Positions 2,617-36,818 of a stretch of DNA of 64,000 nt are shown one piece after another. This stretch comes from a virus. The stretch's first letter is position 1, and the number at the start of each line of letters is the position of its first letter. Position numbers and translations under genes: made by a program. The stretch lies in IMG/VR virus record IMGVR_UViG_3300045988_122383, positions 24,896 to 88,895 of that record, one strand, 5' to 3'. The notes under the pieces were generated by a model, which was not told where the DNA came from, ran no database searches, and worked only from the letters and a program-made list of their open reading frames with translations.

Positions 2617-4890
2617 TTAATTTTTTAAGCTTAACCAGGTGCGCCTCTTATTATGATTTGTCATAATACATCTCTTAAACGCTTCTGGCTCTGCAAGGAG
2701 TGCAAATCTTTTCTTAGCTCGTGTCAACATTGTATATAACATACAGTTATCAAGCAATTTGTAATGTGTATTGTCAATAATACCGATCACAGTTTGCGCA
2801 GCTGATCCTTGAAGTTTATGCGTGGTTAATGCATATGCTAATTGCAGTTGTCCTAACTGAGCGAAAGAATATTCAATCAGCTTTTCTTCAATATTTGCAT
2901 TCATAGACACCAAACATATTTCTTTTTCTTTGTCAATCTCTGTAATGTATCCAATATCACCATTGAATACATCTCGCTCGTAATCATTTGAAGTCTGTAA
3001 TACCTTATCTCCTAAATAGTATTTACGATCTTTGAATTCAACAAATGGTTTGTTACTACTAGCAAATAATTCTTTCTGTACTGCTTTGTTCAATTCATCT
3101 GTGCTGTTCGTACAATTACTTCTTCGTGGAGAAATAATCACAACATTGTCAAGCCCTTCCTCTTTGACAGATTTGATATACTGCTTTACTGCCATATTGA
3201 ACAATGATTCTCTATTCTTCCTGAACAAATAAAACATATCATTTAGTTCACCATGAACAATTTTTAATTGTGGGCTATCCAATGGATTAATCCCTCTGCG
3301 AATCTTTCTTGCATCCGTTAAAATACCAGATTTTTCTGCTTGTCTCATCGGTTTGGTAAGCTGTACACTATTTAAACCTTTCTTTTTCAACAGATCCGAG
3401 AAAATATTACCAAATCCAATCGGTGGCAACTGCATATAGTCACCACAAAAAATTAATCGTGTTCCTGGTCGAATTGCCAATAAAAAATTATAGAAAAGGC
3501 TCGCATTTGTCATGCTACTTTCATCCATGATTACTACATCAGCAGGTAATGGGTTATCTTGGTTATAACAAAAACTATCAATACCTTCTGCTACAAGTAA
3601 CCTATGAATAGTCCGTGAGTCTAAGCCTGTTGCTTCTTTAATTCTTTGGGCTGCTTTTGCAGATAAAGCACACGCAACAATGCTATTATTTCTTTTTTGG
3701 TAGCATTTAATAATTGGTTTCAGAATTGTTGTTTTACCAGTTCCAGCTTCTCCAGAAATAAACACAACTTGGCAATTTAATGCTTTGTTAACTCCTGTAA
3801 TTTGTTCTTCTGAAAACATAAACCCTTCTTCATCTTCAACTTCAGAAATCGTCTGACTAATCTCACTATCTGTTATTGGTTCGTAATCTGTTGTATTTCC
3901 AAATGAATATTTCTCCATATCTTTAATAAATTCGTAAATATCCATTTCAATTTTATAATACGATTTCAGACCAATTTTATCTCCAGATGTATATAAATAA
4001 TTTGGTAATTTTTTATCTGATTCTTCATCAAACCATTCGTCAAATATAGGTAAGCATTCAGACGCTGCATTACTAATATTGCTTCTTAAATTTTTGATAT
4101 ACACATATGTATGTCCATCATTATCACCAACTTGATGCAAGTCGTAGGAAATAAATGCGTTTAACCGTTGATTTGAGCATCGCAATTCTGGTTTTAATTT
4201 GAGCGCAATATCATCAACTCGTTTAAAGCCCATGCCCTTTACCCTAGTTAGTATATATGGATTTTGTTCAATCTGTTTTTTTAAAACACTTGGATTAGGT
4301 TCGGATTTCAATAATCTTTCAATCGTTGGTAACGTAACCCCATATGGTTGCAACATTACAACAATATCAGAAATCACATAGTTTTTAATAATTTTATCTC
4401 TAAGCTTCTTCCAAGTTTTATCTCCTAGTCCTTTGATTTCTGAATGGTCAATCATCTCTAACTGACCATTCATTACATCTTCAACAACATTAGGATATTT
4501 CGCAATTAACTGATCTGCGATCACTGCGTTCGTCTGTGTTTTTAAAAATACCTTTTGTGCTTCAAAAGTTTTAGGAACTTCAGCAACTATAGAAAGTGGT
4601 TTATATTGGTATTCATTGTATTTCTTAGAATATGTCATATTGGCTTTAACCTTATATTTCGTTCCTAAATACAACTCCTGCATATTACCAACCAATTTGC
4701 CACATTTATTCATTTTTTTATCGGATAAGTCATCAAAATCATTATTATTATATGGTTTACATTCTGGTAAATCTTCTGCTGTACAGAATGTGTAAATCCC
4801 AAATAAAGATTCTTCATTATAATAAATCTGATATAATGGGACAATCTCAAACTCATATTCTTTTGTACTATCCACCACTTTAGGCGACAA
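2617..4890 (-). CDS. RecD-like SF1 DNA helicase with an N-terminal domain of unknown function.
   Basis: Walker A VFISGEAGTGKTT and Walker B VIMDESSM, plus a C-terminal RecD/TraA-like motif LAYALTTHKLQGSAAQTV. The ORF is 757 aa. Confidence 0.75.
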   Translation of the reverse strand: MSPKVVDSTKEYEFEIVPLYQIYYNEESLFGIYTFCTAEDLPECKPYNNNDFDDLSDKKMNKCGKLVGNMQELYLGTKYKVKANMTYSKKYNEYQYKPLSIVAEVPKTFEAQKVFLKTQTNAVIADQLIAKYPNVVEDVMNGQLEMIDHSEIKGLGDKTWKKLRDKIIKNYVISDIVVMLQPYGVTLPTIERLLKSEPNPSVLKKQIEQNPYILTRVKGMGFKRVDDIALKLKPELRCSNQRLNAFISYDLHQVGDNDGHTYVYIKNLRSNISNAASECLPIFDEWFDEESDKKLPNYLYTSGDKIGLKSYYKIEMDIYEFIKDMEKYSFGNTTDYEPITDSEISQTISEVEDEEGFMFSEEQITGVNKALNCQVVFISGEAGTGKTTILKPIIKCYQKRNNSIVACALSAKAAQRIKEATGLDSRTIHRLLVAEGIDSFCYNQDNPLPADVVIMDESSMTNASLFYNFLLAIRPGTRLIFCGDYMQLPPIGFGNIFSDLLKKKGLNSVQLTKPMRQAEKSGILTDARKIRRGINPLDSPQLKIVHGELNDMFYLFRKNRESLFNMAVKQYIKSVKEEGLDNVVIISPRRSNCTNSTDELNKAVQKELFASSNKPFVEFKDRKYYLGDKVLQTSNDYERDVFNGDIGYITEIDKEKEICLVSMNANIEEKLIEYSFAQLGQLQLAYALTTHKLQGSAAQTVIGIIDNTHYKLLDNCMLYTMLTRAKKRFALLAEPEAFKRCIMTNHNKRRTWLSLKN

Positions 4891-7800
4891 CCCCCTTCAC
4901 TTTCTTAATATCTTCTAGCCATTGTTTATATGGTTTAATTTTCTTTGCGATAACCTTCTCTTCTGAATCTTTTCTGCATAACATCGCAATCTGATTTCCT
5001 TTGGTAATCATATCTTCATATTCTTTTAATTGCGAATGCCAGACGATTGCCTCAGTCAATCCAAAACTAGAATATAAATTCACATACGCAAATGTCTTTT
5101 TATTTTTGTCTTTCTTTTTATCAACTTTAGCGATCACTGCAACCACAGTACAATCATCTCCATTTTCAACATCTTGAAATTGTTTTGACATATACTTGTA
5201 TGCCTGATCAAATGGGTTATCGTTGATAAAGATTTGCAATGCTTCAAATTCCCAAAAATCTTCATTCTCAAGATATTTTTGATTCTGTGCGATAAATTTC
5301 TGAAATCGTTCTTTTTCCTTATCTTTGTACAATTCATACTTTTTATCGTTATAAACTTTCAATATTGCATCTTTGTCGTAATCATATTTCTTCTCACCTA
5401 TACGGTAATCTTCAGCGTCAATATCCCATTTAATAAGTAATTGTTTGTAACTCGGTGCTTTTGCAACTGGCTTGAATGTTGTTGGCTGATACATAGATTT
5501 CAAATACTGAATTAAAGTTTTACGCTTATTCTTTGTTGGAATTGCACCTGCTTTGATCAACTGAATAACCTGTGATTTACTTGGATTAATACGTTCGCAA
5601 AAGTTTTCAAATCCTATGAATTTACCATTTTTATCACGGTCTTCAAGAATTACCTTTGCAATTTTTTCTCCAATGCCACTGATAGCCGATAATCCAAACA
5701 ATATATACACATCGTCAATACTGAAATTCATCATTGATTTGTTTAAGTTTGGTGGTAACACTTGAATCTTAAACGCCTTAGCATCAAGAATATATTTATT
5801 TACCATTCCTGCCTTATCTTTATTGCGATTCAATAATGCCTTAAAAAAACACAACGCATAATGTTTCTTTAAAAACGCTGTTTGTAAGCATAATACAGCG
5901 TAGGAGTACGCATGACTTTTGTTGAATAAGTATCCCCCTTTTTGGGATAATGTCTCGCTAATCTGTTTTGCAATTTCTTCGGGGTATCCATTCTCAATAA
6001 TCTCGTAATAAAGCTTTTTAGATTCAGACTTTACAAGTTCAATATTCTTCTTACCAATCGCCTTACGGAATAAGTCAGCTCCTCCATAACTTCGACCACC
6101 AAATTTACGAACAATATCAAGTAATTGCTCCTGATAAATCATACATCCATACGTTTCCTTTAAGATTGGCTCCATATCTGGATGGATATATGCAATTTTC
6201 TCTGGATGATGTTTATACTCAATGAATTCTTCTAAGACATCCATTGCATCTGGTCTATACAGTGCTAATACAGCTGCCAACTCTTCCATGTTTGAGACTT
6301 GTAACCTAACCAGCAAATCCTTCATACCAGCACTTTCGACCTGGAAAACACCATTCGTCATTGCACTACGCAATAATTCATATGATCCTTTATCCATTTC
6401 AAACTTTGGATTGTTAATATTTACATCAAACTCAGTTAACCCTGCGTCAATTTCGGCTTCTTTTACAGTGTTCAATGTAGCAACACCCAAAATATCAAAT
6501 TTAATAATCCCAATCTCTTCAACGATACGTTTATCTACTTGGATGACGTGTTCTCCATCAGTTCCAAGTTTCATTGCCATATAATCGCTAATATCTGTAT
6601 CTACAATTCCAACACCACCTGCATGAGAAGATACTGTTTTTACTCTACCTGCAAGATGAGATGCAACGTCAAAAAGCTCTTCATATCTTGGATTCTCTGC
6701 TAAATCTCTGTTATTCCATAAAGATTCTTCAATCGTGTCATATACAAATTTTTTACTTAGTTTGTCCATCTCGTGATAATTGAACCCTAAAACCTTGCCA
6801 ACATCTTTGATTGCCACAATTGGAGTAATAAAACTGAAATTGATAATCTGGCATACTCTGTTTTCGCCATACTTATCGATCAAATATTGGATAATCTCAT
6901 CTCGTGTACCAACATCTGTATCTGTATCTGGCATTGAAATTCGTTCTGGATTTAAAAATCTTTCAAAAATCAGTCCATATTTGATAGGATCTAAGTCTGT
7001 AATTGTAATCGTGTAACACACCAAACTACCTGCACAACTACCTCGACCAGCACCAATTGGAATACCATTTTCTCTTGCAAAATTGATAAAATCCCAAACG
7101 ATCAAGAAGTATCCATCGAATCCCATTGAATGAATAATATCTAACTCATAATCAATTCTTTCTTTTCTGAGTTTCTGCTCATCTTCTGGTAATTTATCGA
7201 ATCCTCGTTTTACCCACCCTGTATCAATCAGATACTTTAAATAAGAATAATTATCTTCAAATCCTTCTGGTAATGGGAAAGATGGTAACTGAGGTGCCTG
7301 AAATGGCATGTGAATTTCATCAATTAAATCTGCAATCCTATCAGTTTCTTCAAGTCCTTTAGTTACTGCGTCTTCTCCAATTTGGTTATCCATAATTGCA
7401 TGAATTTCATCGTCAGATTGTAAATAACATCCTTCATAAATTTCTGCTGCGGTTTCAGTATCGTGAGCAAGCTTTACATGCCAGTTCTGATAATACAGAT
7501 CTTCTTTTCTAGCAGCGTGACTATCAGTTGTGATAATGTATGGTGTATTAGTGTCTACTGAAAGCCGTAAGATTTTCTGATTATATACCATTTGATCCTG
7601 ATGTGAATGTGACTGCATTTCTAAATAAAAATGTGGAAAAATCTCTTTGTATTCAAGAACATATTCAACACATTTCTGATAATCTGGCTCTCTGGCAAGT
7701 TTAGATGCTAAACAAGCACTACTCACAACCAGATCCTTAGCATATGGTTTCAACGCATTCAGATCAATTCGTGGCTTGTAGTAAAATCCATGAAAATTTG

Positions 7801-8113
7801 AATCAGTTACCAATTGATTAATTGCTTTTCTACCATTCTCATTCTTTGCCAATACAATTAAATGGAAATATTTGCTATCCTTATTCTGTTCTGTCATATC
7901 AAAGCATTCATAAAATTCAACTCCAAAAATCAATTTAACACTTGGATATTTCTCATGAAGCTTATCATAATAGCACCAACTATACTCATTGCCATGTTCT
8001 GTGATAGCCAGGGCTTTTAGTCCTATCTCTTCTGCTCTTTGTAAGTTTTCTTCAGGTAATGCATATCCATCTAACAATGAATAATGCGAATGTGTATGTA
8101 ATGAACTGCTCAC
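4880..8113 (-). CDS. dnaE: DNA polymerase III alpha subunit (DnaE-type replicative polymerase).
   Basis: N-terminal PHP domain (HTHSHYSLLDG) and the polymerase active-site region GRGSCAGSLVCYTITITDLDPIKYGLIFERFLNPERISMPDTDTD. The ORF is 1077 aa. Confidence 0.85.
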   Translation of the reverse strand: MSSSLHTHSHYSLLDGYALPEENLQRAEEIGLKALAITEHGNEYSWCYYDKLHEKYPSVKLIFGVEFYECFDMTEQNKDSKYFHLIVLAKNENGRKAINQLVTDSNFHGFYYKPRIDLNALKPYAKDLVVSSACLASKLAREPDYQKCVEYVLEYKEIFPHFYLEMQSHSHQDQMVYNQKILRLSVDTNTPYIITTDSHAARKEDLYYQNWHVKLAHDTETAAEIYEGCYLQSDDEIHAIMDNQIGEDAVTKGLEETDRIADLIDEIHMPFQAPQLPSFPLPEGFEDNYSYLKYLIDTGWVKRGFDKLPEDEQKLRKERIDYELDIIHSMGFDGYFLIVWDFINFARENGIPIGAGRGSCAGSLVCYTITITDLDPIKYGLIFERFLNPERISMPDTDTDVGTRDEIIQYLIDKYGENRVCQIINFSFITPIVAIKDVGKVLGFNYHEMDKLSKKFVYDTIEESLWNNRDLAENPRYEELFDVASHLAGRVKTVSSHAGGVGIVDTDISDYMAMKLGTDGEHVIQVDKRIVEEIGIIKFDILGVATLNTVKEAEIDAGLTEFDVNINNPKFEMDKGSYELLRSAMTNGVFQVESAGMKDLLVRLQVSNMEELAAVLALYRPDAMDVLEEFIEYKHHPEKIAYIHPDMEPILKETYGCMIYQEQLLDIVRKFGGRSYGGADLFRKAIGKKNIELVKSESKKLYYEIIENGYPEEIAKQISETLSQKGGYLFNKSHAYSYAVLCLQTAFLKKHYALCFFKALLNRNKDKAGMVNKYILDAKAFKIQVLPPNLNKSMMNFSIDDVYILFGLSAISGIGEKIAKVILEDRDKNGKFIGFENFCERINPSKSQVIQLIKAGAIPTKNKRKTLIQYLKSMYQPTTFKPVAKAPSYKQLLIKWDIDAEDYRIGEKKYDYDKDAILKVYNDKKYELYKDKEKERFQKFIAQNQKYLENEDFWEFEALQIFINDNPFDQAYKYMSKQFQDVENGDDCTVVAVIAKVDKKKDKNKKTFAYVNLYSSFGLTEAIVWHSQLKEYEDMITKGNQIAMLCRKDSEEKVIAKKIKPYKQWLEDIKKVKGVVA

Positions 8114-8124
8114 TAACTTTCACC

Positions 8125-9873
8125 TCAATCCCAAATATCTTCGTCTAATTCTTCATCTGTTGTAATGCTCAGAACATTAATATCATCAACCGCAATTTGA
8201 TATTGTCTAATTCCGTTAAAGATATTAGTCTGTGCAGTTCCTACTAATTCAAATGTAACTGTGCCTTCGTCAGAAAAATCATTCATAATCCAATCATAAA
8301 TCTTATTTTTTTCATTACATCTAAACATCACGCATGGAATATCATTAATCTTGAATTGCATTGTATCCATTTTCTTACCAACAACATTAATTTCTTCCTT
8401 ATTTAATGTGATATTCTCGACAGCAATCATCGGATCATCAATGCCCTGCCCGCGAATATCATCCAATTTAGACATTTCCTGTAGTAGTTCAAACTCTAAT
8501 CTACAAGCATCTACAATGAAATCAACTCTATAAGTTGAATCATATTTAATATCTTTCAGCTTGTCGTTTAATTCTGTGAGTGCTCCAGAGATATTATCTG
8601 TCGAACATCCAAATGCATTGGCGTGACCTTTTGCCCATAAAAATGAATTTGTTTCGGATATCACATCTTTCAAACTATCAATCGGGCTATGGTCTACATT
8701 TCTTGCACTACCACTCATTTCTACTAATCCTGTTTCTGGATTAATATGTTTTCGTAATAACAAACATGGTCTGTTCATATCTTCAGCAATCTTAATGGCA
8801 ACCAATCCTGTCAAACTGCTATCTAATGTTTCTGTAACATCAAGAATAGTAATCTTACTATCTTTATCTTTTTCTGCCTCTTTCATAATAATCGGAACCA
8901 TCTTTTTCTTTTGACGATCCTGTTTGCCTTTAGCATTTTTGCATAATCGAGCGGCACGATCGTAAATATTCTCTTTGATTACTTCCGCAGGGTTGTTTTT
9001 TGTTGCTCTTTTCTTATAGTCAAATACCTCATAGTCTTCAATAAATGCTCTAAAAACTAATTCTTTATCTTTCAAAGAACCAAATCGTACCATACCATTG
9101 ATAATTGGAACGATATACCACTGAACATTATGGATATTAACAATACTGTGCATTGAATAGTCTTGTGCATTGATCAGCGCTTTGAAGCATTTATTCTGAA
9201 GATTCTGAATCCCTTTATCCACTAAACGACGTGTCTCAAATGATCTCATATCCATGACATCACCGATATTCGCTAATGCACATAAATCTAAATAATCATC
9301 AGCATAATTGATCCATAATTCGTCATCCATTGCTTGCAAAAATCTATAAACAACGCCTGCCCCACATAAGTCTTTGTTCTTATAGTGTGGACTGCACTGG
9401 TTATTTACAATTACAACTTCCTCTGGCATTTTAATTTCAGATTCTTCTTTTTCATGGTGATCAAGAATTACAATCTGTACGCCACGACTTACAAGTTCAG
9501 TACACTGTGTTACATCGTTGGTGCCTGCATCTGGAATTATTAAAAGTTTTACGTCTTCAGGTATAGTAATATCTTCACTTAATCCGTGAGCTTTTGCTTT
9601 TTTATGCAATAAGTAACAAATGTTACTCTTGCTGTCATAAAGTTCATTATTAATGCGATTTAAGTACATATATACCATTGAAGCTGAGCAAAATCCGTCT
9701 ACGTCCTCGTCAATTAAAATACCGATTTTATGTCCATTTTCAAGTGCAAAAATCGTTGTATTTACTGCGTTTTTAATACCCTCTAAATCGGCATAATCTT
9801 GAATTACGCTATCATCAAGGTTCAAATACGTTTCATAATCATCAATCCCTCTATTTCTTAAAATTTCTGGCAC
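8125..9873 (-). CDS. RecJ-like DHH-family single-strand DNA exonuclease.
   Basis: DHH motifs ILIDEDVDGFCSA, IIPDAGTND and ILDHH, plus a DHHA1-like GHANAFG. The N-terminus has RecJ-like architecture. Confidence 0.7.
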   Translation of the reverse strand: MPEILRNRGIDDYETYLNLDDSVIQDYADLEGIKNAVNTTIFALENGHKIGILIDEDVDGFCSASMVYMYLNRINNELYDSKSNICYLLHKKAKAHGLSEDITIPEDVKLLIIPDAGTNDVTQCTELVSRGVQIVILDHHEKEESEIKMPEEVVIVNNQCSPHYKNKDLCGAGVVYRFLQAMDDELWINYADDYLDLCALANIGDVMDMRSFETRRLVDKGIQNLQNKCFKALINAQDYSMHSIVNIHNVQWYIVPIINGMVRFGSLKDKELVFRAFIEDYEVFDYKKRATKNNPAEVIKENIYDRAARLCKNAKGKQDRQKKKMVPIIMKEAEKDKDSKITILDVTETLDSSLTGLVAIKIAEDMNRPCLLLRKHINPETGLVEMSGSARNVDHSPIDSLKDVISETNSFLWAKGHANAFGCSTDNISGALTELNDKLKDIKYDSTYRVDFIVDACRLEFELLQEMSKLDDIRGQGIDDPMIAVENITLNKEEINVVGKKMDTMQFKINDIPCVMFRCNEKNKIYDWIMNDFSDEGTVTFELVGTAQTNIFNGIRQYQIAVDDINVLSITTDEELDEDIWD

Positions 9874-9940
9874 AACATTAGAGGTATCATTTGTGCCACC
9901 TTCATATAATTTATATTTTATATGTATAACCTGCCTGTTC

Positions 9941-10969
9941 TTATTTAAGTGTATACAAATAGTTATTTAACAATAGTTCCCATTTTTTAGGGTCATCAGT
10001 AGGTGATTCTTTTTCGTCAAGGATTCCTTCTTTTGAGTTATCCATAATGTATGAAATCGGAACTCCATCAATAAAACGATCGCCAAGCTTTTGAATCTCT
10101 TCTAACTCAACATCTTTGTCAAAAATAAATACTATTTCAACTCCGAGTCTTGTTAACATGTCAATTTGCTGTCTTGAAACTTGCTTGCCGCCAGTCGCCA
10201 CAACATTTTGATATCCGTATGACCATAGCTGCATGACAGCTTTTTCTGCTTCAGCAACATATACTCTTCCAGCCCTTTCTATATAAGGTAGAGTTTTATT
10301 CAATCCGTATAAGATTCTTTGTCTAGCGCATGGCTCAATATATAAATATTTCAAATCATGTTTGTCTAACTCTTTCTTGAACAATCGTCCTTTAACACCT
10401 ACCAAATCGCCAATTTCAGAAAAAATAGGTATTGTAATTCTGTTGGTATCTTCGTCATAGCCAATATTAAATTCTTTCTGTGTTAAATAAGTAATATGAT
10501 CTTCATAAAACAGATCATTAACATAGTCCTTATAATAAGAAAGAATTCGTTTTGAAATTGGTTTGACTGGTTTATCTTCTTCGGTTTCTATATTTTCTTT
10601 CATATCATGAATCAATTGAGTGATCTGCAAACTTTCTGGCAATTGCTCATTAAAATCATGATAATAATCTATACCAATCAAATTGGCTAGATATTTTAAA
10701 CCGTCTGGGAAAGACAGACTTTTTGTAAAGCATACCAAGTCAATTAAATCTGTCTGTCTTTCTTTTACTGTCATTTTTCTTGTATAATTTGTGCAATTTA
10801 GGTTTTCGTTGTTATATGTAATAACTGCGGATTCATTATCCCCATCTTTATTTGCACAGCTCCAATATCCAGACGAATGATATTTAATATGATGACAGCC
10901 TATATCTTTCAGAATATTTTCTACATAATTATTGTCGTATATATATTCTTTTAGCTGTGCTACATCCAT
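9941..10969 (-). CDS. DNA primase (DnaG-like, Toprim domain).
   Basis: Toprim-like segment VYVAEAEKAVMQLWSYGYQNVVATGG...VFIFDKDVE and an N-terminal Cys/His-rich region. The gene sits between the RecJ-like and DnaB-like genes. Confidence 0.55.
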   Translation of the reverse strand: MDVAQLKEYIYDNNYVENILKDIGCHHIKYHSSGYWSCANKDGDNESAVITYNNENLNCTNYTRKMTVKERQTDLIDLVCFTKSLSFPDGLKYLANLIGIDYYHDFNEQLPESLQITQLIHDMKENIETEEDKPVKPISKRILSYYKDYVNDLFYEDHITYLTQKEFNIGYDEDTNRITIPIFSEIGDLVGVKGRLFKKELDKHDLKYLYIEPCARQRILYGLNKTLPYIERAGRVYVAEAEKAVMQLWSYGYQNVVATGGKQVSRQQIDMLTRLGVEIVFIFDKDVELEEIQKLGDRFIDGVPISYIMDNSKEGILDEKESPTDDPKKWELLLNNYLYTLK

Positions 10970-18407: not shown

Positions 18408-18947
18408 CTATTCATTGACTTCAACTGGCTCTAATTTGTCTTTATTTTTAACAAAATCCAACATGACTTCTTCTTGTATATCTTCATATAATTTGTCATA
18501 GTATGTTTTCTTTAATTTAAAAAATGCTACTTTCAAATCTTCACAATAAAACCTACCTCTTTGCCCATTTTTAATTTGCCGATAAGGATTTTCAGGGTGC
18601 TCGTACACAACAGAAATTGTTCCATCTCCATCATATGTAGTCTCCATCGAAATACTACCATTCTTAAGAGCATGATACATAACCTGATTATCTTCAATAA
18701 AACCATATGGATGCCACTCATAATCATCAGGAATAACAGTTGGTTCAATAACATCAAAATATTTTTCCAATTCATCTCCTGACATCACGCCAAGATGTAC
18801 TCCATCTACACCAAATCTAAAATTAATAACATTTTCATCTGTATCAATCTTAACAATCTCACATACCTCGCCAAGATTATCGAAGCATCCCATTGGTTTC
18901 TTTAATTTAATCTTATGATCTGTTGTCAATTCATTAATATTAATCAT
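18408..18947 (-). CDS. Hypothetical protein.
   Basis: ORF of 179 aa; overlaps the upstream gene by 4 nt. Confidence 0.45.
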   Translation of the reverse strand: MININELTTDHKIKLKKPMGCFDNLGEVCEIVKIDTDENVINFRFGVDGVHLGVMSGDELEKYFDVIEPTVIPDDYEWHPYGFIEDNQVMYHALKNGSISMETTYDGDGTISVVYEHPENPYRQIKNGQRGRFYCEDLKVAFFKLKKTYYDKLYEDIQEEVMLDFVKNKDKLEPVEVNE

Positions 18948-19978
18948 GCTGCCACCTTACCTTTCTTACTAAAATGTTTATTCCATGCATCAACCGCTTC
19001 TTGTTGATCGGCAGTTAGAGGATCATTGAATCTTTGCAGTGCTTGTACGATTCGTCCATTTTGTATTTCAATCGTCACTAACGATTTGTTTGGTTCTTTT
19101 ACTCTTCTCAAGAACATAATATGGCATTCGCCATCAATGACTCGATCTATGTAACTTGCCACACAATTATTTTGCTGCACCGCTTCGTCTTTAATGTCTT
19201 GAGTAGAATCTGGATAAAAGAATCTCAGTCCTTTATATGTAAATTCGTATTCTTTGTTAATACGGTTCTTAAAGACTTCTTCCGAAAATTCTTTTTGCAA
19301 TCTTTTGTAATTTCTTGTGACAATATCCATTGTTGTTTTGAAATGTCTTGGATATCTATCAAATTTATGACTGATTGCGTCCATCATACGGGCATAATCA
19401 CGCAATTCTCCGAGTAACCAATTTATACTATTGGTAGCAGCTTCAAATGTAATTATTCTATCTATATAAACAAACACATCTGCAAGATTATAGCCATAAT
19501 CCTGATTTAAAGCCTCCAAAATTTTTGTGAAACGATATCTATGATTATCCTCGAAGAAATTTATTAAATATTCTTTAGTTAATGTCATATACTCTGTCTG
19601 CAAAATCGTTTGTACATAATCTGGATACATCTTATAAAAATCAACAAAATCATTACTTAACAATCGTCTATTCTTCACACCAAGACAATAATTCCTTAAC
19701 CATTTTGGTACTTCATTGATTGAATATTTAAAATCTTCTGTGACTTGTTTATGTGTAAATCCTATAGCAAAGAACTGCTCACATACCGAATATTTACTTG
19801 CATATTTAAACAATGTTCCTAAATTATAATCAATGAAGCCCCATGTAGTTCTTCCCATTTCACAATTTTTTCGCCAGTTTACATATTTTAAAAACTCTGC
19901 ATAATGTGGATCGGACACAAATAATTTATCCAATTCATCAGCCGAATGCCCAGACAGAATATTATTTAAAGCTTTCAC
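18944..19978 (-). CDS. Hypothetical protein of about 344 aa.
   Basis: The track starts this ORF at a GTG. The same frame stays open upstream for about 35 codons to a TGA without any ATG, so the true start is uncertain. Confidence 0.45.
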   Translation of the reverse strand: MKALNNILSGHSADELDKLFVSDPHYAEFLKYVNWRKNCEMGRTTWGFIDYNLGTLFKYASKYSVCEQFFAIGFTHKQVTEDFKYSINEVPKWLRNYCLGVKNRRLLSNDFVDFYKMYPDYVQTILQTEYMTLTKEYLINFFEDNHRYRFTKILEALNQDYGYNLADVFVYIDRIITFEAATNSINWLLGELRDYARMMDAISHKFDRYPRHFKTTMDIVTRNYKRLQKEFSEEVFKNRINKEYEFTYKGLRFFYPDSTQDIKDEAVQQNNCVASYIDRVIDGECHIMFLRRVKEPNKSLVTIEIQNGRIVQALQRFNDPLTADQQEAVDAWNKHFSKKGKVAA

Positions 19979-20139: not shown

Positions 20140-20613
20140 TTACACCCATGCTCGAATACTACAATGACCCATCTTAAGATAAAAATCATATATATATGTA
20201 CATAATTTTTTCTCATCGTCAAATATCTTGTCAGACATTTGCACCCACCAAGCATGTAATCTTTTCTTTTCTGTATTCAAAACCAGTACAGGAATATGAC
20301 GTTCATATGCAATTGCAATCTCCATAGATGTACCAATGCTTTTCGGATCATTCGCATTTACTACAACAAGATCACTATTTCTAACAAAATTTGTATCAAA
20401 TCTCATTACTTCTTTTTCTGTATCATGCAACTCTGTTTGAAAATTGTAATAATCAACAGGGTTAATAATATTAACTTCTTTCATATTAACATTAAGAATC
20501 CTACGCATAGTAATAATTTGATTGCAAATTCTTTCTCTCCAAGCATTCTGCTCTTCAAACGATAAATCCTGCATACCGCCAGCCAAATAAATCTGAAATA
20601 TATTATTTTGCAT
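20140..20613 (-). CDS. Nucleoside 2-deoxyribosyltransferase-like (NDT/Rcl-fold) protein.
   Basis: N-terminal IYLAGGM and a catalytic-region-like SIGTSMEIAIAYERHIPVLVL, matching the NDT pattern YFAGxxF...D.GxxxExGxA. Confidence 0.55.
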   Translation of the reverse strand: MQNNIFQIYLAGGMQDLSFEEQNAWRERICNQIITMRRILNVNMKEVNIINPVDYYNFQTELHDTEKEVMRFDTNFVRNSDLVVVNANDPKSIGTSMEIAIAYERHIPVLVLNTEKKRLHAWWVQMSDKIFDDEKKLCTYIYDFYLKMGHCSIRAWV

Positions 20614-21708: not shown

Positions 21709-22542
21709 TTACACCATTCCTCTCACAATTCGTTCATTTGTTGTCATCAAGAAGTTATTGATACGATCCCAGTCTGGTTCGTCTGGCAAATCAGTATTCA
21801 TATAATCATAATCAAATTGATAAAGTAATCCTTCAATAAAAACATCGTATGACTGATTTGGGAAATATTCTGTATGCTCATTGTGTTTGCCAAATCTATA
21901 TGTTTTATGCGTACTATTATATCCTTCTTTGATCTTTACAAGATCTTTTCCTATGTCATCCATAGATCCTAACATTGTTCCGTTATGCAATAATTCAATG
22001 CCCTGTAACAATAATCGAACTGCGTGCATCATTGATTTATTAGCGTATCGTTCCGCCTTTTGCTTTTCTTTCTCTGAATCTTTATTTTTATAATACTTAA
22101 AACTCGTTCGAGTCAGGCAATCACATATATATCCTTTATATGCATGATAAACTCTCTTAGATAAGAACATATCTCTATTTTTGATCAACTCCATACCAAT
22201 ATCGGATACACACAAATAACGGTCTGGCGCAAAATACAACAGTTCTAAATATGTAGGGTTACCTTTTGCAAGCATGTTAATCATCTTAATATGCGAATGT
22301 AACACAGTATCAACATCTTTATGATCGTCTGTCTTTTCAAGATTATTTGGATTATTATTCAACAAAATCTCTCTTTTATCACTAAGGAAAACACCACGTA
22401 AATCAATATCAGAATCCTCTGTATTTGTTCCGTAGGCATAACTTCCACCTAGCGTGAGAAAAGCGATTTTGTGAGGATAATCTCGTAAAAAGTCATACTC
22501 TGGAGACGAGTTTATGTAATCTTTTACTTCTTCAATTGTCAT
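21709..22542 (-). CDS. Pol-beta superfamily nucleotidyltransferase.
   Basis: hG[GS]x9-13Dh[DE]h motif GGSYAYGTNTEDSDIDLRGVF with a downstream acidic KDVDTVL. The start was moved to the ATG at 22542, which has an AGAGGTGAG ribosome-binding site. Confidence 0.55.
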   Translation of the reverse strand: MTIEEVKDYINSSPEYDFLRDYPHKIAFLTLGGSYAYGTNTEDSDIDLRGVFLSDKREILLNNNPNNLEKTDDHKDVDTVLHSHIKMINMLAKGNPTYLELLYFAPDRYLCVSDIGMELIKNRDMFLSKRVYHAYKGYICDCLTRTSFKYYKNKDSEKEKQKAERYANKSMMHAVRLLLQGIELLHNGTMLGSMDDIGKDLVKIKEGYNSTHKTYRFGKHNEHTEYFPNQSYDVFIEGLLYQFDYDYMNTDLPDEPDWDRINNFLMTTNERIVRGMV

Positions 22543-22555
22543 GATCTCACCTCTT

Positions 22556-23089
22556 TTATCCACATAATGCTTTCTTAAACTGTACAATATTTTGACTAAC
22601 CCACTGATGAGTGATTCCAAGCTGACTTGCAATTTGTCTTTGTGTTAAACCTTTCTGCTTTAACGTGATAATCTTTTTATTTCTCGGTGCCAATTTATCA
22701 AACTCATTTTGAAAATGTACCTTTGTAAACACCTCATCCTCTACATTATCTTTACTCATCAGTGTTGTTCCGATTGTAATATCATCTTCTGGTTCGTATC
22801 CTGCCAATGGTGTATCTAACGATTCAGCATTCCTATTCATTTTTTCTGTTAGTCTGTGCCATTTTGTATAATATTGATTCACTTCTGAACGTAATACCCA
22901 GAAGAGATATGTACCAAAAGTTCCTTTAGACTCGTCCCATTTTAATGCTGCTTTACAAATTGCCATACGACCAAGATCCATATATGTATCAAAATCTGTA
23001 AACTTTGTAAAATATTTTTCATGTAAATGCCAAATCAAAGAGTAATTATCTTCAATCAGCCTTCGCTGTTCATCATTTAGTTTCTTCAC
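22556..23089 (-). CDS. Phage RNA polymerase sigma factor (sigma-70 family), paralog 2.
   Basis: N-terminal LNDEQRRLIEDN, a region-2-like FGTYLFWVLRSEV and a region-4 HTH LTQRQIASQLGITHQWVSQNI. Confidence 0.7.
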   Translation of the reverse strand: MKKLNDEQRRLIEDNYSLIWHLHEKYFTKFTDFDTYMDLGRMAICKAALKWDESKGTFGTYLFWVLRSEVNQYYTKWHRLTEKMNRNAESLDTPLAGYEPEDDITIGTTLMSKDNVEDEVFTKVHFQNEFDKLAPRNKKIITLKQKGLTQRQIASQLGITHQWVSQNIVQFKKALCG

Positions 23090-23858
23090 ATCTCTTTGCC
23101 TCCTGTTCTTTAATGAATTTTTGTACTTCCTCTACATAACTTAATTCAAAATATCTTTCAATATACCCGCCCATTGGAACTCCAGTATATTTAAAATTAG
23201 GAATAGTTTCTTTTAGTTGACCACAAACCTCAGATCTAAATGTGTTTGTATATTTTTTCAAATCATTCATGGAATATGTTTGTTTAAAATGTGGCATATC
23301 AAGAGTGTTAAATAGTCTCCATAAAAAATTACTATTTCTATACTTTGTTAATTTAGCATCACGTAATTCATCCATAAAATCTCTCATAAATCGGATTATC
23401 TTATCAACATCTTTTGATGCTAATTCAAATACTAAATTTTCTGATTCATCATAATATGTATAATCATCATATTTTGTATTTGAATAAATCTTGTATACTT
23501 CATTTTTGCCTGATAGATTTGCTGATATATTATCAACATTCAAAACTTTGCCATTTTTCATAACTATTTCATCACTACACAATATCGCAGGAGATGTTAT
23601 AGAAAACTTATCCAATAAAACATATTGAGGGCTCAGATTAAAATGTGGATTATGATCGTCAAAATTACAAAACATCTCCGCTAACTCAATATGATCCTTG
23701 TTTCTCAATGAATTAATTTCTGTCCATTCATCACCAAGACAAATACCACGTACTGTTTTTAAAACCCTTTTTCCATAAATCTCTACATCGGCTTCCCAAT
23801 CTGGGTCTCTATGTTTACTAAAAGCAAGTTCAAATTCTCTTGTATTTTTCCTTGACAT
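23073..23858 (-). CDS. Hypothetical protein.
   Basis: ORF of 261 aa. Confidence 0.45.
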   Translation of the reverse strand: MSRKNTREFELAFSKHRDPDWEADVEIYGKRVLKTVRGICLGDEWTEINSLRNKDHIELAEMFCNFDDHNPHFNLSPQYVLLDKFSITSPAILCSDEIVMKNGKVLNVDNISANLSGKNEVYKIYSNTKYDDYTYYDESENLVFELASKDVDKIIRFMRDFMDELRDAKLTKYRNSNFLWRLFNTLDMPHFKQTYSMNDLKKYTNTFRSEVCGQLKETIPNFKYTGVPMGGYIERYFELSYVEEVQKFIKEQEAKRCEETK

Positions 23859-23861
23859 ACA

Positions 23862-24815
23862 TCACACTCCTAACACATACTTATCACTTCTGAACCCAGC
23901 TGCATTTGGATGACCACCGCCACCATATTTCACAGCAAGCTCATACACATTTACTTTATCCTGTTCTGCGGATCGCAACTGATATTCCCACATACTTCCA
24001 TTGAACGAAAAACCAATGAACATATCATATTTAGAAGCATCAATAGATTCAAAGAAATCATAATTGATTAATGCTCGGTTGATTGCATAGACTTTATGTC
24101 CCTCAAATATGGTTTCAAAACCATATGCTCTAAGATATTGTTCTGCATTTGCTGCTAAATACTCAATAATTGATAAGCCATCTGCTATCATATCACCAAT
24201 AATTTTTGCTGCTTCATAAATTCCTTGATCTTTATTTAACGTGTTTAGCAATGGACTTAACGCATCAAAATCATACGATTCAAATGCATAGTGAAATGCT
24301 TTTACGAATTGTTTTGACGTTTCACCAAAATAAAATGTATCCCACATGGCTGTATATTCTGCCAGTTTTGGATAATCTGCTTTATATTTATATATATTGA
24401 GTAATCTTTTTACATTTTTCTCATCCGTCCTCTCAATTTGCTCCCAATTTTCATCACACATATATTTAAAATATAACCATGCCAAATTCGCTCCTGAAAT
24501 ACCCGCTCCAGTAATTCTGATTCCTTTTACATCACACTTGAAATCTTTATACGCTTCAATCGTAGACTGATGATGGTCGATCCAAAATACATTCTTTGTA
24601 ATACTGAGCAACTGCCACATCTCTTCTGGCTCAATACTGTAGTCTACAATAAACACAAATTCATCCTGCTCAATGTCATGAAACGGGAATTTCATGCCGT
24701 AATTAATTTTTCGGAAGTCTTCTGGTTTAAACTCTAAACCTCGCTGTTCGCAAGCTTTTCTGACATAGAAACCAGATACGATGCCGTCCTGATCAACATG
24801 ATAAAAACATTTCAT
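23862..24815 (-). CDS. DHH-DHHA1 phosphoesterase (NrnA-like oligoribonuclease / pAp-phosphatase family).
   Basis: 317 aa with DHH motifs HVDQDGIVSG, DHHQS and the DHHA1 GGGHPNAAGF. The size matches NrnA. Confidence 0.65.
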   Translation of the reverse strand: MKCFYHVDQDGIVSGFYVRKACEQRGLEFKPEDFRKINYGMKFPFHDIEQDEFVFIVDYSIEPEEMWQLLSITKNVFWIDHHQSTIEAYKDFKCDVKGIRITGAGISGANLAWLYFKYMCDENWEQIERTDEKNVKRLLNIYKYKADYPKLAEYTAMWDTFYFGETSKQFVKAFHYAFESYDFDALSPLLNTLNKDQGIYEAAKIIGDMIADGLSIIEYLAANAEQYLRAYGFETIFEGHKVYAINRALINYDFFESIDASKYDMFIGFSFNGSMWEYQLRSAEQDKVNVYELAVKYGGGGHPNAAGFRSDKYVLGV

Positions 24816-24821
24816 TCTTCT

Positions 24822-25235
24822 TTACCCCTTTCGTTTATTCATTAAGTTAAGAAAATCTGCAACATCCTGCATAGCATGTACGCCAGAATATACTTTAATA
24901 CGATTTTCTTTCAATAAATTTTCGACTGCTTTTAAACTGTGGCTCATCTGCTTAGATTCTTTATTCTTTTGTTCCTGATAGAGATTAAGAAAGATCACTT
25001 TATCTGGTCGCTTATGAGAATCATCAACTACTTCTGCAATACTGTATACTCCTTTAATACCATTCGTAATGCCATACAGAACATAGTCAGATTCTTCTCT
25101 TTCCTTGACTTCCCGCAGTCGGTCTTCTTCACTCCAATTTTTTACGATTGGATTATAATAATCACAATCCAACATCTTCTGTAGCTGGTCTCTCCACTTC
25201 CATCCAGAGCATGTTCCGCCTAAAAACACTTTCAT
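24822..25235 (-). CDS. Small NDT/Rcl(DNPH1)-like fold protein; the assignment is tentative.
   Basis: N-terminal KVFLGGTCSGWKWRD resembles the Rcl YFCGSIRGG motif. The ORF is 137 aa. Confidence 0.35.
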   Translation of the reverse strand: MKVFLGGTCSGWKWRDQLQKMLDCDYYNPIVKNWSEEDRLREVKEREESDYVLYGITNGIKGVYSIAEVVDDSHKRPDKVIFLNLYQEQKNKESKQMSHSLKAVENLLKENRIKVYSGVHAMQDVADFLNLMNKRKG

Positions 25236-25531
25236 TCTTCTTTCTCCTTCACCTTTGCTTTTGATTGATTTGGCTTTTTAACCGATTCAACATATATTTC
25301 CCAGTCATCTGCATATACATCTTCCGCAAGAGGTATCCAAACTTCTGCGTTTTCTTTATCAAATAAAAAAATAATTGAATCTGGCTTATATTCACCCATA
25401 TCATTACACTCAAAATAAACATTAGTTAATTCTGACGAATAAATTTTCAAATACTTTTCCTTTCCCCAAATGCCTCTTCTTATAGTAGTTTTGTCTTTTT
25501 TTATTGCGATCATTGCTTTTATAAAATTCAA
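25232..25531 (-). CDS. Hypothetical protein.
   Basis: ORF of 99 aa. Confidence 0.4.
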   Translation of the reverse strand: MNFIKAMIAIKKDKTTIRRGIWGKEKYLKIYSSELTNVYFECNDMGEYKPDSIIFLFDKENAEVWIPLAEDVYADDWEIYVESVKKPNQSKAKVKEKEE

Positions 25532-25539
25532 TTAATTAT

Positions 25540-25851
25540 TCACCTCTTCCTTTTACTGTTAAAATCCCATCCTTGCTCAACCCAATCATTTGCGAAAATA
25601 TCCTCTTGTGTAGGCAACCATCCCAATGTTATAACTCCATTTTGGTCTCTACATAAGAGTGGTTTCATTTTATATTTTTTATCAAATGGAATAATCTCAT
25701 TTAATTCTTCTTCGCACATCATAAACACATAATCATAAGTTGTTCGTGTCTTCTTCCACGAACTACGACGATACAATTGTCTTGGATTAATTTCCATATT
25801 TTGCATCATCATTTCAAACGACATTCCTTGTTTCTTTTTTGCCATTGGCAT
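25540..25851 (-). CDS. Hypothetical protein.
   Basis: ORF of 103 aa. Confidence 0.4.
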   Translation of the reverse strand: MPMAKKKQGMSFEMMMQNMEINPRQLYRRSSWKKTRTTYDYVFMMCEEELNEIIPFDKKYKMKPLLCRDQNGVITLGWLPTQEDIFANDWVEQGWDFNSKRKR

Positions 25852-36221: not shown

Positions 36222-36818
36222 TTACTCATTGATTACTTCAATCTGGCACATCTTCATTGCTTCGAGTGCATTCTTGTGACTCTCTGGTGTTACACCTGCA
36301 CAACACGATGCATCTACAAGAATCTTTGCCTCTGGCAACGTTGCTTTTAGCAACATTGCATTTGAGATTACACAAATATCTGTACAAAGACCAATTAAGG
36401 TAATTTCAACATCTTCTGGATGAGACCTACCATCTTCACCGAATTCATCAGAACAATCGTCCATAAGTTCTAATGACCCAAATGTTTCTTTACAATAGTT
36501 CTCAAGAAGCCAAATAGCATTTTCTTGCTTGTCATTGCGACAAAACATCTCTGACGATAATAATGCCTTTCTAACTTCTTCATTTAAATGCCACCCATCT
36601 TCTCCGCAGATGCAATGCTTTACTGGAAGATTCTTTCCTTCCTGTGTAGATAAATAATTTTCATCGTGTGTGTCCATTGTTGCAACAATAATGCCATCAA
36701 AATTTTTAATTTTCTCAATTACTTTGGGAACAATTTCCTGTGCTTCTTTGGTTCCAAGGCTTCCGTCGATAAAATCATTCTGCATATCGACGACAACCAA
36801 TAATTTATTAACGTCCAT
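36222..36818 (-). CDS. Isochorismatase-family cysteine hydrolase (nicotinamidase PncA-like).
   Basis: VVVDMQNDF ... conserved Lys ... GLCTDICV catalytic Cys pattern. The ORF is 198 aa. Confidence 0.6.
   Translation of the reverse strand: MDVNKLLVVVDMQNDFIDGSLGTKEAQEIVPKVIEKIKNFDGIIVATMDTHDENYLSTQEGKNLPVKHCICGEDGWHLNEEVRKALLSSEMFCRNDKQENAIWLLENYCKETFGSLELMDDCSDEFGEDGRSHPEDVEITLIGLCTDICVISNAMLLKATLPEAKILVDASCCAGVTPESHKNALEAMKMCQIEVINE

Follow-up and report, generated by a model that had tools for sequence, protein, structure and literature searches.

A phage-borne DHH-DHHA1 phosphoesterase with relatives in RNA-repair cassettes, a possible trimmer of RNA ends

We analyzed a predicted phosphoesterase gene in a 64-kb stretch of viral DNA (this whole stretch is referred to as the window) and found that its product belongs to a family whose genes, in several divergent phages, lie on the same strand as RNA-repair genes in compact cassettes. 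The gene encodes a predicted soluble, divalent-metal-dependent DHH-DHHA1 exonuclease/phosphoesterase. Our tentative reading is that the protein is an exonuclease that may take part in tRNA repair by trimming RNA ends. Since the conserved neighbors of the gene are RNA-repair enzymes and not signal-degrading genes, trimming of damaged RNA ends is a more likely role than the destruction of second messengers of immunity. The gene and the putative translation signal in front of it are located as follows:

23862..24815, minus strand: DHH-DHHA1 phosphoesterase gene, an ORF with an ATG start encoding 317 aa
24825..24830, minus strand: putative Shine-Dalgarno sequence (AAGGGG) located 9 nt ahead of the start codon (ATG at 24815)

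A sequence-only reading of this DNA had already proposed a 317-aa ORF at these positions, with no strand given, and had described it as a DHH-DHHA1 phosphoesterase. Both points were borne out: the ORF lies on the minus strand and encodes an intact, stand-alone protein of this type, and the three motifs quoted at the time can be found at residues 6-11 (HVDQDG), 80-84 (DHHQS), and 299-308 (GGGHPNAAGF). The AAGGGG motif overlaps the final codons of the gene upstream, pointing to translationally tight operon packing. The catalytic motifs of the protein are H6-x-D8-x-D10 (motif I), D58 (motif II), D80-H81-H82 (motif III), and D159 (motif IV), and the DHHA1 part carries L280-R281-S282 and G298-GGG-H302. 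An alignment of 47 relatives with 40-89% identity shows no variation at H6, D10, D58, D80-H81-H82, D159, or G298-GGG-H302, and almost none at D8 and R281.

The AlphaFold2 model of the protein (pLDDT 93.5, pTM 0.84) has the two-domain alpha/beta fold with a helical linker that characterizes the superfamily. A DHH domain with a helical insert occupies approximately residues 1-195 and is followed by a long helix that serves as the linker (199-231) and by the compact DHHA1 domain (233-317); the top fold matches of the model in both the PDB and BFVD are DHH-family folds. The Pfam scores are below the gathering thresholds for DHH (PF01368, 21.7 bits vs 28.1) as well as for DHHA1 (PF02272, 21.5 bits vs 25.9). 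Since relatives at 40-45% identity have precomputed matches to PF01368 and PF02272, these scores reflect divergence and not the absence of the domains. The Pfam search detected no additional domain beyond DHH and DHHA1, and no transmembrane segment was predicted in the protein (maximum Kyte-Doolittle mean over 19 residues, 1.09).

The family is large and almost exclusively phage-borne. A word-indexed search identified 438 homologs (best E-value 2e-211), and an exhaustive search retrieved 5213 clusters at 50% identity with E<=1e-3, numbers well outside what chance would produce. IMG/VR contains at least 358 matches to the family, and 185,579 species genomes of cellular organisms yielded 37 weak matches, the best of them at 39%. 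The description of the gene as an accessory phage gene, also part of the sequence-only reading, agrees with these results. The protein matches the profile of PHROG 4771 over its full length (residues 3-312, 120 bits, E=2e-34), and so does the cassette-linked relative in locus L072 (E=5e-45). PHROG 4771 includes viral DHH phosphohydrolases from jumbo phages and giant viruses, such as those of Erwinia phage PhiEaH1, Pseudomonas phage PaBG, Ralstonia phage RP12, Bacillus phage AR9 (where it is named 'NrnB'), Klosneuvirus, and Hokovirus. These proteins share with the window protein a length of approximately 280-320 aa and the position of motif I right at the N-terminal start, but their identity to it is just 17-21%. 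The best Foldseek matches of the model in BFVD have E-values of 1e-18 to 1e-15 and TM-scores of 0.6-0.72. The tblastn search of GenBank phages revealed no homolog with more than 27.5% identity in cultured phages, and no match was obtained when 20 kb of the window were compared with GenBank phages by megablast. The window phage itself is a large human-gut phage with a genome of roughly 165 kb. No experimental study of a phage DHH enzyme turned up in our literature searches. In a neighbor-joining tree, the clade of the window protein is the sister of the clade that holds the cassette-linked DHH genes.

The protein had also been classified as NrnA-like, and this assignment does not stand beyond the common architecture. 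NrnA is a bifunctional oligoribonuclease/pAp phosphatase that acts in the 5'-to-3' direction on 2-4-mer RNAs. NanoRNase A, Pde2, CnpB (Rv2837c), and TmPDE share the two-domain architecture of the window protein and are comparable to it in length, and the DHHA1 segment W-x-x-S-x-R-S...GGGGH of the window protein aligns with that of NrnA/CnpB (E about 1e-5). However, the score for the NCBIfam NrnA equivalog NF053633 is 15.8 bits vs a cut-off of 350, with the match limited to residues 263-307; profile searches align just about 35 residues around GGGGH with NrnA/CnpB, and NrnA-type structures are not the closest solved structures to the model.

NrnB, above all in its compact classes NrnB-B and NrnB-C, is among the known systems nearest to the window protein; it is known as a 3'-to-5' exoribonuclease. 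Two relatives, one of them 86% identical (P0016, along with P0071), carry the JGI label COG2404, 'oligoribonuclease NrnB/cAMP/cGMP phosphodiesterase'. By its published definition, NrnB combines COG2404 with a DHH domain and a GGGH motif, and its branch includes clades A, B, and C (PMC12709177). The window protein has no detectable sequence match to a solved NrnB-like chain, and NrnB is a cellular housekeeping gene, whereas the window family is phage-borne and linked to RNA repair. The DHH nuclease domain of archaeal HAN (PF0399) and RecJ-Cdc45/GAN show 12-19% identity to the window protein, which lacks the N-terminal Zn-finger, S1, and OB domains of HAN. By analogy with NrnB and HAN, the polarity of the window enzyme would be 3'-to-5'.

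It is improbable that the gene provides a second single-strand-DNA exonuclease of the HAN/RecJ type that degrades host DNA or acts in replication or recombination. Among NCBIfam models, RecJ_archaeal indeed gives the best match (residues 4-124, 23.1 bits vs a cut-off of 360); RecJ_Meth scores 15.4 bits vs 550. Homologs in Brevundimonas jumbo phages are annotated as ssDNA-specific exonucleases, an SNF2 helicase adjoins the DHH gene in two loci (L054 and L061), and ResIII/DEAD helicases are the commonest Pfam family within three genes of DHH genes (4 of 148 neighbors). However, the Brevundimonas annotation is by similarity only, the window protein contains no OB domain (no Pfam match to RecJ_OB) or other DNA-binding domain, and the phage already has a canonical RecJ. 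The latter is encoded at 8125..9873 and is a genuine RecJ, with 59.6 bits for Pfam DHH and an additional match to RecJ_OB. It had been set apart from the DHH gene on sequence grounds, rightly so, as the similarity of the two proteins in pairwise BLASTP is confined to GH.NA.G. The RecJ gene belongs to a replication module that also contains PolIII alpha, a RecD2-like helicase, and a primase; the DHH gene is 14 kb away, in a block of small genes and a sigma factor.

Around the DHH gene, the window contains the following features:

23073..23858, minus strand: unannotated protein of 261 aa, separated by a 3-nt gap from the DHH gene upstream of it
22556..23089, minus strand: sigma-70-family phage sigma factor of 177 aa (Sigma70_r2 and r4; PHROG 351, E=7e-27)
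21709..22632, minus strand: RlaP-family Pol-beta nucleotidyltransferase (PF10127, 83.4 bits, E=2.6e-23; PHROG 388)
24822-25235 and 20140-20613: nucleoside 2-deoxyribosyltransferase (NDT)-like genes, directly upstream and 3 kb downstream of the DHH gene, respectively
29884..29912, minus strand: candidate early promoter, TTGACA-17-TATATT with an extended -10 TG, 11/12 match

The block of DHH gene, unannotated gene, sigma factor, and RlaP gene is retained in 23 of 24 sibling loci. The 261-aa protein has no Pfam or PHROG match, and the slot 3' of the DHH gene is occupied in the siblings by one of two alternative unannotated proteins of ~261 or ~175 aa (c17/c86). The sigma factor downstream is kept in the window lineage and in a sister clade at 46% identity. 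RlaP is an RNA-repair enzyme that adds one or two NMPs to RNA 3'-OH ends (PMC12776372); gene callers choose a later start for the gene in the window, giving ~277 aa. The DHH gene is probably expressed early and as one transcription unit with the sigma factor and RlaP genes. The candidate promoter, which is the best sigma-70-like match on the coding strand, occupies an intergenic gap; the small genes that follow it run up to the DHH gene. Promoter-like matches in total do not exceed the shuffled expectation, and this one is singled out by its position and match quality alone.

Two Tad2-like genes (PF11195) are located directly upstream of the DHH gene in the same orientation, and they are the one point of local support for an earlier suggestion that the enzyme degrades messengers of CBASS or type III CRISPR. 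More generally, the protein might hydrolyze cyclic or linear oligonucleotide messengers of these or related systems. Such a role is already a published prediction: Iyer et al. (2021) predicted a role against SMODS and type III signals for the DHH phosphodiesterases of jumbo phages, with reference to a cA4-degrading DHH-DHHA1 nuclease (PMC7824862). It would also fit the presence of GdpP, PggH, and TmPDE among the fold matches, the position of the gene where a variable hotspot of small accessory genes ends, and an NAD+ salvage island 9-12 kb upstream, which shows that the phage invests against nucleotide- and NAD-based immunity. However, the Tad2-like pair belongs to this hotspot; 13 of 24 sibling loci have it but none of the 25 other DHH lineages does, so its adjacency to the DHH gene is not conserved. 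Functional coupling of the DHH and Tad2-like genes was rejected, as the presence of the latter varies even among near-identical phages. No other known anti-signaling family recurs near the DHH gene in the 26 lineages sampled, and the linkage that is conserved is with RNA repair. Furthermore, characterized NrnB proteins do not cleave c-di-AMP (PMC12709177). The window protein, with motif I at residue 6, has neither the membrane anchor of the archaeal cA4-degrading MAD enzyme nor a PAS-GGDEF region, in which it differs from MAD and GdpP. We thus assign a low probability to messenger hydrolysis; of the sequence-only interpretation as a whole, the domain architecture, the accessory status, and the distinction from RecJ hold, NrnA membership does not, messenger degradation is weakly supported, and nucleotide recycling stays a competing explanation.

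Part of the evidence that favors trimming of RNA ends comes from more distant phages. A tight cassette of genes on one strand is present in sister clades at 37-44% identity, with RlaP, an unannotated gene, and a CCA-adding enzyme in this order and the DHH gene at the end. This arrangement was observed in five divergent loci (L072, L006, L036, L052, and L093), with a Thg1-like gene following the cassette in L006 and RtcB upstream of it in L093. A Thg1-like gene is also present within 4-5 kb of the DHH gene in L042, L053, L055, and L059, RtcB is two genes away in L038, and a P-loop kinase-HD protein of the end-healing type lies at a distance of 3-8 kb in L067, L076, and L080. True RtcB proteins were identified by the HSGSR motif together with Pfam; neighbor cluster c94 was rejected as RtcB, being SNF2 helicase according to Pfam. 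The short 'CCA' proteins of L067, L076, and L080 were likewise rejected, as Pfam assigned them to the P-loop kinase-HD proteins.

In the reciprocal test, a DHH gene was found directly downstream in 43 of the best 80 phage CCA-enzyme loci. It is missing from 37 of these best 80 cassettes and is thus dispensable for the CCA cassette; no contig of the window lineage is among the 80. Same-strand linkage is conserved across divergent phages, in raw counts that include many close relatives. As genes for nucleic acid metabolism cluster in phages anyway, the linkage overstates functional coupling. An RNA-repair neighbor is absent in 19 of the 26 DHH lineages sampled, and in some of these the DHH gene adjoins genes for helicases (SNF2 and others), DNA methylases, or dNMP metabolism. 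The cassettes also contain a conserved ~320-aa protein with no Pfam, PHROG, or PDB sequence match, and a six-frame search revealed no such protein in the window. No CCA-adding enzyme, Thg1-like, or RtcB gene was found in the 64 kb of the window either, so the repair link here rests on RlaP, two genes away from the DHH gene.

Through its linkage to RlaP, the window gene resembles components of known RNA-repair cassettes (T4 Pnkp/Rnl, RtcB-RtcA-RlaP, and the CCA/Thg1-like genes of jumbo phages), whose presumed purpose in phages and bacteria is to restore toxin-damaged tRNA (PMC7824862; PMC12776372). A DHH enzyme as a component of such cassettes is not described in the literature searched, and the phage DHH enzymes treated by Iyer et al. 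(2021) are assigned there to counter-signaling and not to RNA repair (PMC7824862).

The likely hosts are Clostridia, in which nanoRNases of host origin are to be expected, a point against a further explanation, which we consider rather unlikely, that the protein is a phage nanoRNase with NrnB/NrnA-like function, converting short oligonucleotides from the breakdown of host RNA and DNA into mononucleotides for replication and stopping nanoRNA priming. The COG2404 label of close relatives agrees with this explanation, and so does the compact protein without a C-terminal extension, a feature that correlates with short-RNA preference in bacterial NrnB (PMC12709177). The NDT-like genes on both sides of the DHH gene might serve salvage, but the upstream one is present in just 10 of 24 sibling loci. 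Thy1 and dCMP deaminase neighbor the DHH gene in other lineages; even so, the most repeated specific neighbors are RNA-repair and not salvage enzymes. P0106 and P0145 are fusions of the DHH protein with a small kinase-like P-loop domain (AAA_17/18), which could be an NMP kinase. This fusion is real but ambiguous: the domain has no informative PDB match, and in phage AR9 it does not adjoin the DHH gene. A GIY-YIG fusion in P0179 was rejected as a functional clue, being a homing-endonuclease artefact. The sigma factor near the DHH gene could also be relevant here, as nanoRNA priming affects transcription initiation (PMC4488433). If the protein is a plain nanoRNase, the finding is an ordinary one.

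In the favored reading of RNA-end trimming, the DHH enzyme would trim or clean damaged single-stranded RNA ends, above all those of tRNAs, and would leave a proper end for template-independent or reverse polymerases to rebuild. The rebuilding polymerase would be RlaP in the window phage, and the CCA-adding enzyme and the Thg1-like protein in the sister phages; ligases such as RtcB may also profit from trimmed ends. The enzyme would then be the nuclease step of a phage RNA-repair counter-defense against host toxins that cleave tRNAs or modify their ends. Hydrolytic steps of this kind appear in previous work. RNase PH, a 3'-exoribonuclease, has been used in the in vitro repair of tRNA 3' ends extended by MenT3 (PMC11541572), and the authors of the RlaP study stated that RlaP products need an extra hydrolytic step to become compatible with RtcB (PMC12776372). 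A broader and more doubtful proposal is that the DHH family is the missing exonuclease of phage tRNA-end repair, in cassettes that include the ~320-aa protein. Its members may trim tRNA 3' ends damaged or extended by toxins, or mismatched 5' ends, which RlaP, CCA-adding, or Thg1-like enzymes would rebuild, and may thereby counter MenT/AbiEii-type nucleotidyltransferases or acceptor-stem nucleases.

For annotation, the locus calls for caution: a DHH gene beside Tad2-like genes looks like an anti-signaling gene, an impression that the conserved synteny contradicts. Should the RNA-repair reading be true, a nuclease step would be added to phage tRNA-repair systems, which have so far been described as consisting of kinases/phosphatases, ligases, and nucleotidyltransferases. 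It would also point to a testable class of host defense, namely toxins that damage or extend tRNA ends and that are resisted by the abundant 130-180-kb phages of the human gut.

The ORF proposed for the DHH gene was borne out: it occupies 23862..24815 on the minus strand of the window, begins with ATG and encodes 317 aa, and every motif quoted in the sequence-only reading is present (HVDQDG at residues 6-11, DHHQS at 80-84, and GGGHPNAAGF at 299-308). An AAGGGG ribosome-binding site, 9 nt before the start, lies within the final codons of the preceding gene, and a gap of 3 nt separates the DHH gene from the next one; it is therefore located within a tightly packed operon. A word-indexed protein search returned 438 homologues (top match 98% identity, E=2e-211), and when 1.84 billion cluster representatives were searched exhaustively, 5213 clusters matched at E<=1e-3, 1979 of them at E<=1e-10. 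In an alignment of 47 relatives (40-89% identity), the metal ligands H6, D10, D58, D80-H81-H82 and D159 as well as the DHHA1 motif G298-GGG-H302 are invariant, and D8 and R281 are nearly so. In the AlphaFold2 model computed from this alignment (pLDDT 93.5, pTM 0.84), a long linker helix (199-231) connects the alpha/beta domain at the N-terminus to a compact domain at the C-terminus. The protein is acidic, and none of its hydrophobic stretches has the length of a membrane helix.

The gene belongs to the known DHH-DHHA1 phosphoesterases, more precisely to PHROG 4771 ('DHH phosphoesterase'; full-length match, E=2e-34), a phage family that is still uncharacterised, and its product is a divergent superfamily member: Pfam DHH (21.7 bits vs a gathering score of 28.1) and DHHA1 (21.5 vs 25.9) both remained under threshold. 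Several lines of evidence separate it from NrnA and bring it nearer to exonucleases of single-stranded nucleic acid. The NCBIfam NrnA equivalog gave 15.8 bits against a cut-off of 350, the top NCBIfam match being the archaeal RecJ model (N-terminal domain, 23 bits vs a cut-off of 360). When the family profile was compared with PDB sequences, only ~35 residues around S-x-R-S...GGGGH aligned to NrnA/CnpB (E ~1e-5). Foldseek against the PDB retrieved archaeal RecJ-Cdc45, TmPDE, PggH, NrnA, GdpP and RecJ with similar E-values and 12-17% identity, and the top BFVD matches were jumbo-phage and giant-virus DHH phosphohydrolases (E 1e-18 to 1e-15, TM <=0.72).

Comparison of the DHH model with solved structures (structure, score)
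DHH nuclease domain of P. furiosus HAN (5yh1), 15.7, 266 residues aligned
RecJ-Cdc45 (7bhi), 15.3
PggH, 12.2
H. pylori 6mtz, 12.2
GdpP, 11.4
NrnA-type structures, 8.6-10.9

HAN is a Mn-dependent 3'-exonuclease acting on both ssDNA and ssRNA (PMC6158738). The structural neighbours would also suit an enzyme that processes ssDNA, as would the helicases adjoining the DHH gene in some lineages and the annotation of homologues in Brevundimonas phages; we regard this role as improbable.

Two relatives, P0016 (86% identical) and P0071, carry the JGI label 'oligoribonuclease NrnB/cAMP/cGMP phosphodiesterase', which is COG2404. A 2025 study defined NrnB by COG2404, a DHH domain and a GGGH motif, and reported that NrnB of all three bacterial clades degrades RNA from the 3' end, that short RNAs are the preferred substrates of compact forms lacking the C-terminal extension, and that c-di-AMP was not cleaved by the NrnB proteins tested (PMC12709177). 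The description 'NrnA-like' is therefore right for the architecture but not for family membership, and 'Phage NrnB-like / HAN-like DHH exonuclease' is a better name for this predicted exonuclease. Scavenging of nanoRNA is a rather unlikely alternative, favoured by the COG2404 label on relatives, the compact form of the protein, its deoxyribosyltransferase-like neighbours and two relatives fused to a small P-loop domain. In these two relatives, at ~41-44% identity, the fused P-loop domain is C-terminal (P0106, residues ~300-458; P0145, residues ~300-462), with Walker A motifs GCGKT and CSGKST and a weak AAA_18 match in P0145. Bacillus phages AR9 and PBS1 and Clostridium phage c-st, among many other phages, have the same domain (~50% identical) as a separate 'AAA family ATPase'.

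ORFs were called by a simple longest-ORF filter. The window's long ORFs all lie on the minus strand, its G+C content is ~33%, and no tRNA genes were found in it. Transcription around the DHH gene runs from high to low coordinates.

Genes around the DHH gene, in order of transcription
~30000 down to 25851, minus, run of small genes of no known function
25540-25851, minus, Tad2-like, 103 aa (PF11195/DUF2829, E=4e-8)
25232-25531, minus, Tad2-like, 99 aa (PF11195/DUF2829, E=1e-11)
24822-25235, minus, nucleoside 2-deoxyribosyltransferase-like (28 bits, just under cut-off)
23862-24815, minus, DHH gene
23073-23858, minus, 261-aa protein with no match
22556-23089, minus, phage-encoded sigma-70-family sigma factor (Sigma70_r2 + r4)
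21709-22632, minus, RlaP nucleotidyltransferase (PF10127, 83 bits)
20140-20613, minus, second deoxyribosyltransferase-like gene, further downstream

Among sigma-70-like promoter candidates of the coding strand the best, a consensus match only, is at 29912..29884, ahead of the run of small genes, and would fit early expression. The two deoxyribosyltransferase-like genes flanking the DHH-sigma-RlaP block match PF15891 and PF05014, the second with an additional weak match to SLOG LDcluster4. The sigma factor ORF overlaps the extended RlaP ORF, for which gene callers choose a later start (277 aa).

Elsewhere in the window, a replication module (2617-10969, minus) encodes a RecD2-like helicase, PolIII alpha (1077 aa), a canonical RecJ and a Toprim primase-like protein, and a PcfJ-like protein is encoded at 18944-19978 (minus). 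An integrase (45355-46305) may point to a phage that is temperate or lives as a phage-plasmid. An SPFH/Band 7-flotillin protein of 486 aa (31256-32716, minus) has counterparts in the examined AR9 region and near the DHH gene in one other lineage (L008); Iyer et al. 2021 reportedly discussed Band-7 proteins together with RNA repair. An NAD+ salvage island (33117-36818, minus) resembles phage NAD+ reconstitution pathways that act against NAD-depleting defences.

Genes of the NAD+ salvage island
33117-33887, minus, NAD synthase NadE
33905-35374, minus, NAMPT-type phosphoribosyltransferase
35371-36207, minus, PRPP-synthetase-like protein (weak)
36222-36818, minus, isochorismatase/nicotinamidase

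Among 24 sibling loci whose DHH proteins are 81-99% identical, the block of DHH, unknown protein, sigma factor and RlaP was present in 23, the Tad2-like pair in 13 and the deoxyribosyltransferase-like gene in 10, with TnpB insertions and alternative small genes directly upstream of DHH. Given this variable upstream content, the DHH gene borders a variable hotspot of accessory genes. Since the Tad2-like genes occur in only 13/24 near-identical siblings, they behave as mobile cargo in a hotspot that also takes TnpB/IS605 insertions, and a conserved Tad2-DHH pairing was rejected, the adjacency being an accident of the hotspot. Three genes on each side were scanned with Pfam in 26 lineages of DHH, dereplicated at 60% identity; among the neighbours annotated, Tad2-like genes occurred in the window lineage only, RlaP in at least three lineages, poly(A) polymerase/CCA-adding enzyme in at least two, RtcB in at least one, ResIII/DEAD helicases in at least four and sigma factors in at least two. 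Degradation of immune second messengers, already published as a prediction for jumbo-phage DHH proteins (PMC7824862), draws support in the present data only from non-conserved neighbours, and we consider it doubtful. The sequence-only reading is confirmed as to what was observed and partly supported as to its interpretation.

In the lineages that, beyond the window clade's own group, are nearest to it (L072, 44% identity; L006 and L093, 41%; L036, 40%; L052, 37%), DHH is the last gene of a tight same-strand cassette, in the order RlaP, a ~320-aa conserved protein (missing in L036), CCA-adding enzyme (PolyA_pol, HD and tRNA_NucTran2_2 domains) and DHH. A Thg1-like gene follows DHH in L006 (PHROG 4717, E=6e-91), and RtcB lies upstream of the cassette in L093. 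Outside these lineages, RNA-repair genes also occur in the vicinity: Thg1-like genes 4-5 kb or less from DHH in L042, L053, L055 and L059, RtcB two genes upstream in L038, and a P-loop kinase-HD protein at 3-8 kb in L067, L076 and L080. A neighbour-joining tree places the window clade and a 46% sister group beside the clade holding all cassette-linked genes. Reciprocally, among the best 80 IMG/VR loci centred on the cassette-type CCA enzyme, DHH starts where the CCA gene ends in 43. In loci without DHH (L098-L174), the ~2 kb or less downstream contains small ORFs and, by motif reading only, look-alikes of Macro, Sir2, nicotinamidase, calcineurin-like phosphoesterase and C5 DNA methyltransferase, which suggests a putative RNA-repair and ADP-ribose/NAD neighbourhood. 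In L094 a Metallophos gene comes immediately before DHH. We found no description of the conserved DHH-RNA-repair linkage in the accessible literature. Separately, L053, L055 and L059 (37-38% identity, with Thg1-like genes) carry a reverse transcriptase (RVT_1, 381 aa; L053:4040-5185) ~3-4 kb upstream of DHH; L055 has two copies of the Thg1-like gene.

The ~320-aa protein (313-334 aa; copies 60-63% identical to one another) lies between RlaP and the CCA-adding enzyme and had no match in Pfam, PHROG or PDB sequences, which makes it a candidate RNA-repair component that lacks annotation.

Copies of the ~320-aa cassette protein
L072:5625-6629
L006:3701-4642
L052:5678-6634
L093:3715-4668

DHH relatives were found in at least 358 viral contigs of IMG/VR, where contigs of the window lineage reach ~160-170 kb, and the identical protein was found in human-gut metagenome assemblies. 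A scan of 185,579 prokaryotic species, each represented by a single genome, yielded no more than 37 weak matches (best 39%, a Eubacteriales MAG), and no homologue above 27.5% identity was detected in cultured phages. The nearest relative of the sister-phage CCA-adding enzyme is that of a Clostridioides phage-plasmid (45%), which suggests Clostridia hosts.

RlaP adds 1 or 2 nucleotides at RNA 3'-OH ends with a preference for damaged tRNA, and its authors stated that an extra hydrolytic step is required before the products fit RtcB (PMC12776372). CCA-adding enzymes restore tRNA 3' ends and Thg1-like proteins 5' ends (PMC7824862; PMC3061083). RNase PH, a 3'-exoribonuclease, served in the in-vitro repair of tRNA over-extended by the toxin MenT3 (PMC11541572). 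Given this chemistry and the position of DHH between the CCA enzyme and a Thg1-like polymerase, our best explanation, a tentative one that falls short of an even chance, is that the DHH exonuclease would perform a trimming or cleaning step in tRNA-end repair. The neighbourhood counts are raw, without permutation control, and many loci are close relatives; moreover, phage nucleic-acid genes cluster through timing as well as function. The tRNA-repair model is weaker for the window phage than for its cassette-bearing cousins, because RlaP was the sole RNA-repair partner in the 64 kb examined. What is new is the conserved linkage of DHH with RNA-repair enzymes, which shifts the obvious experiment away from cyclic nucleotides and towards tRNA ends.
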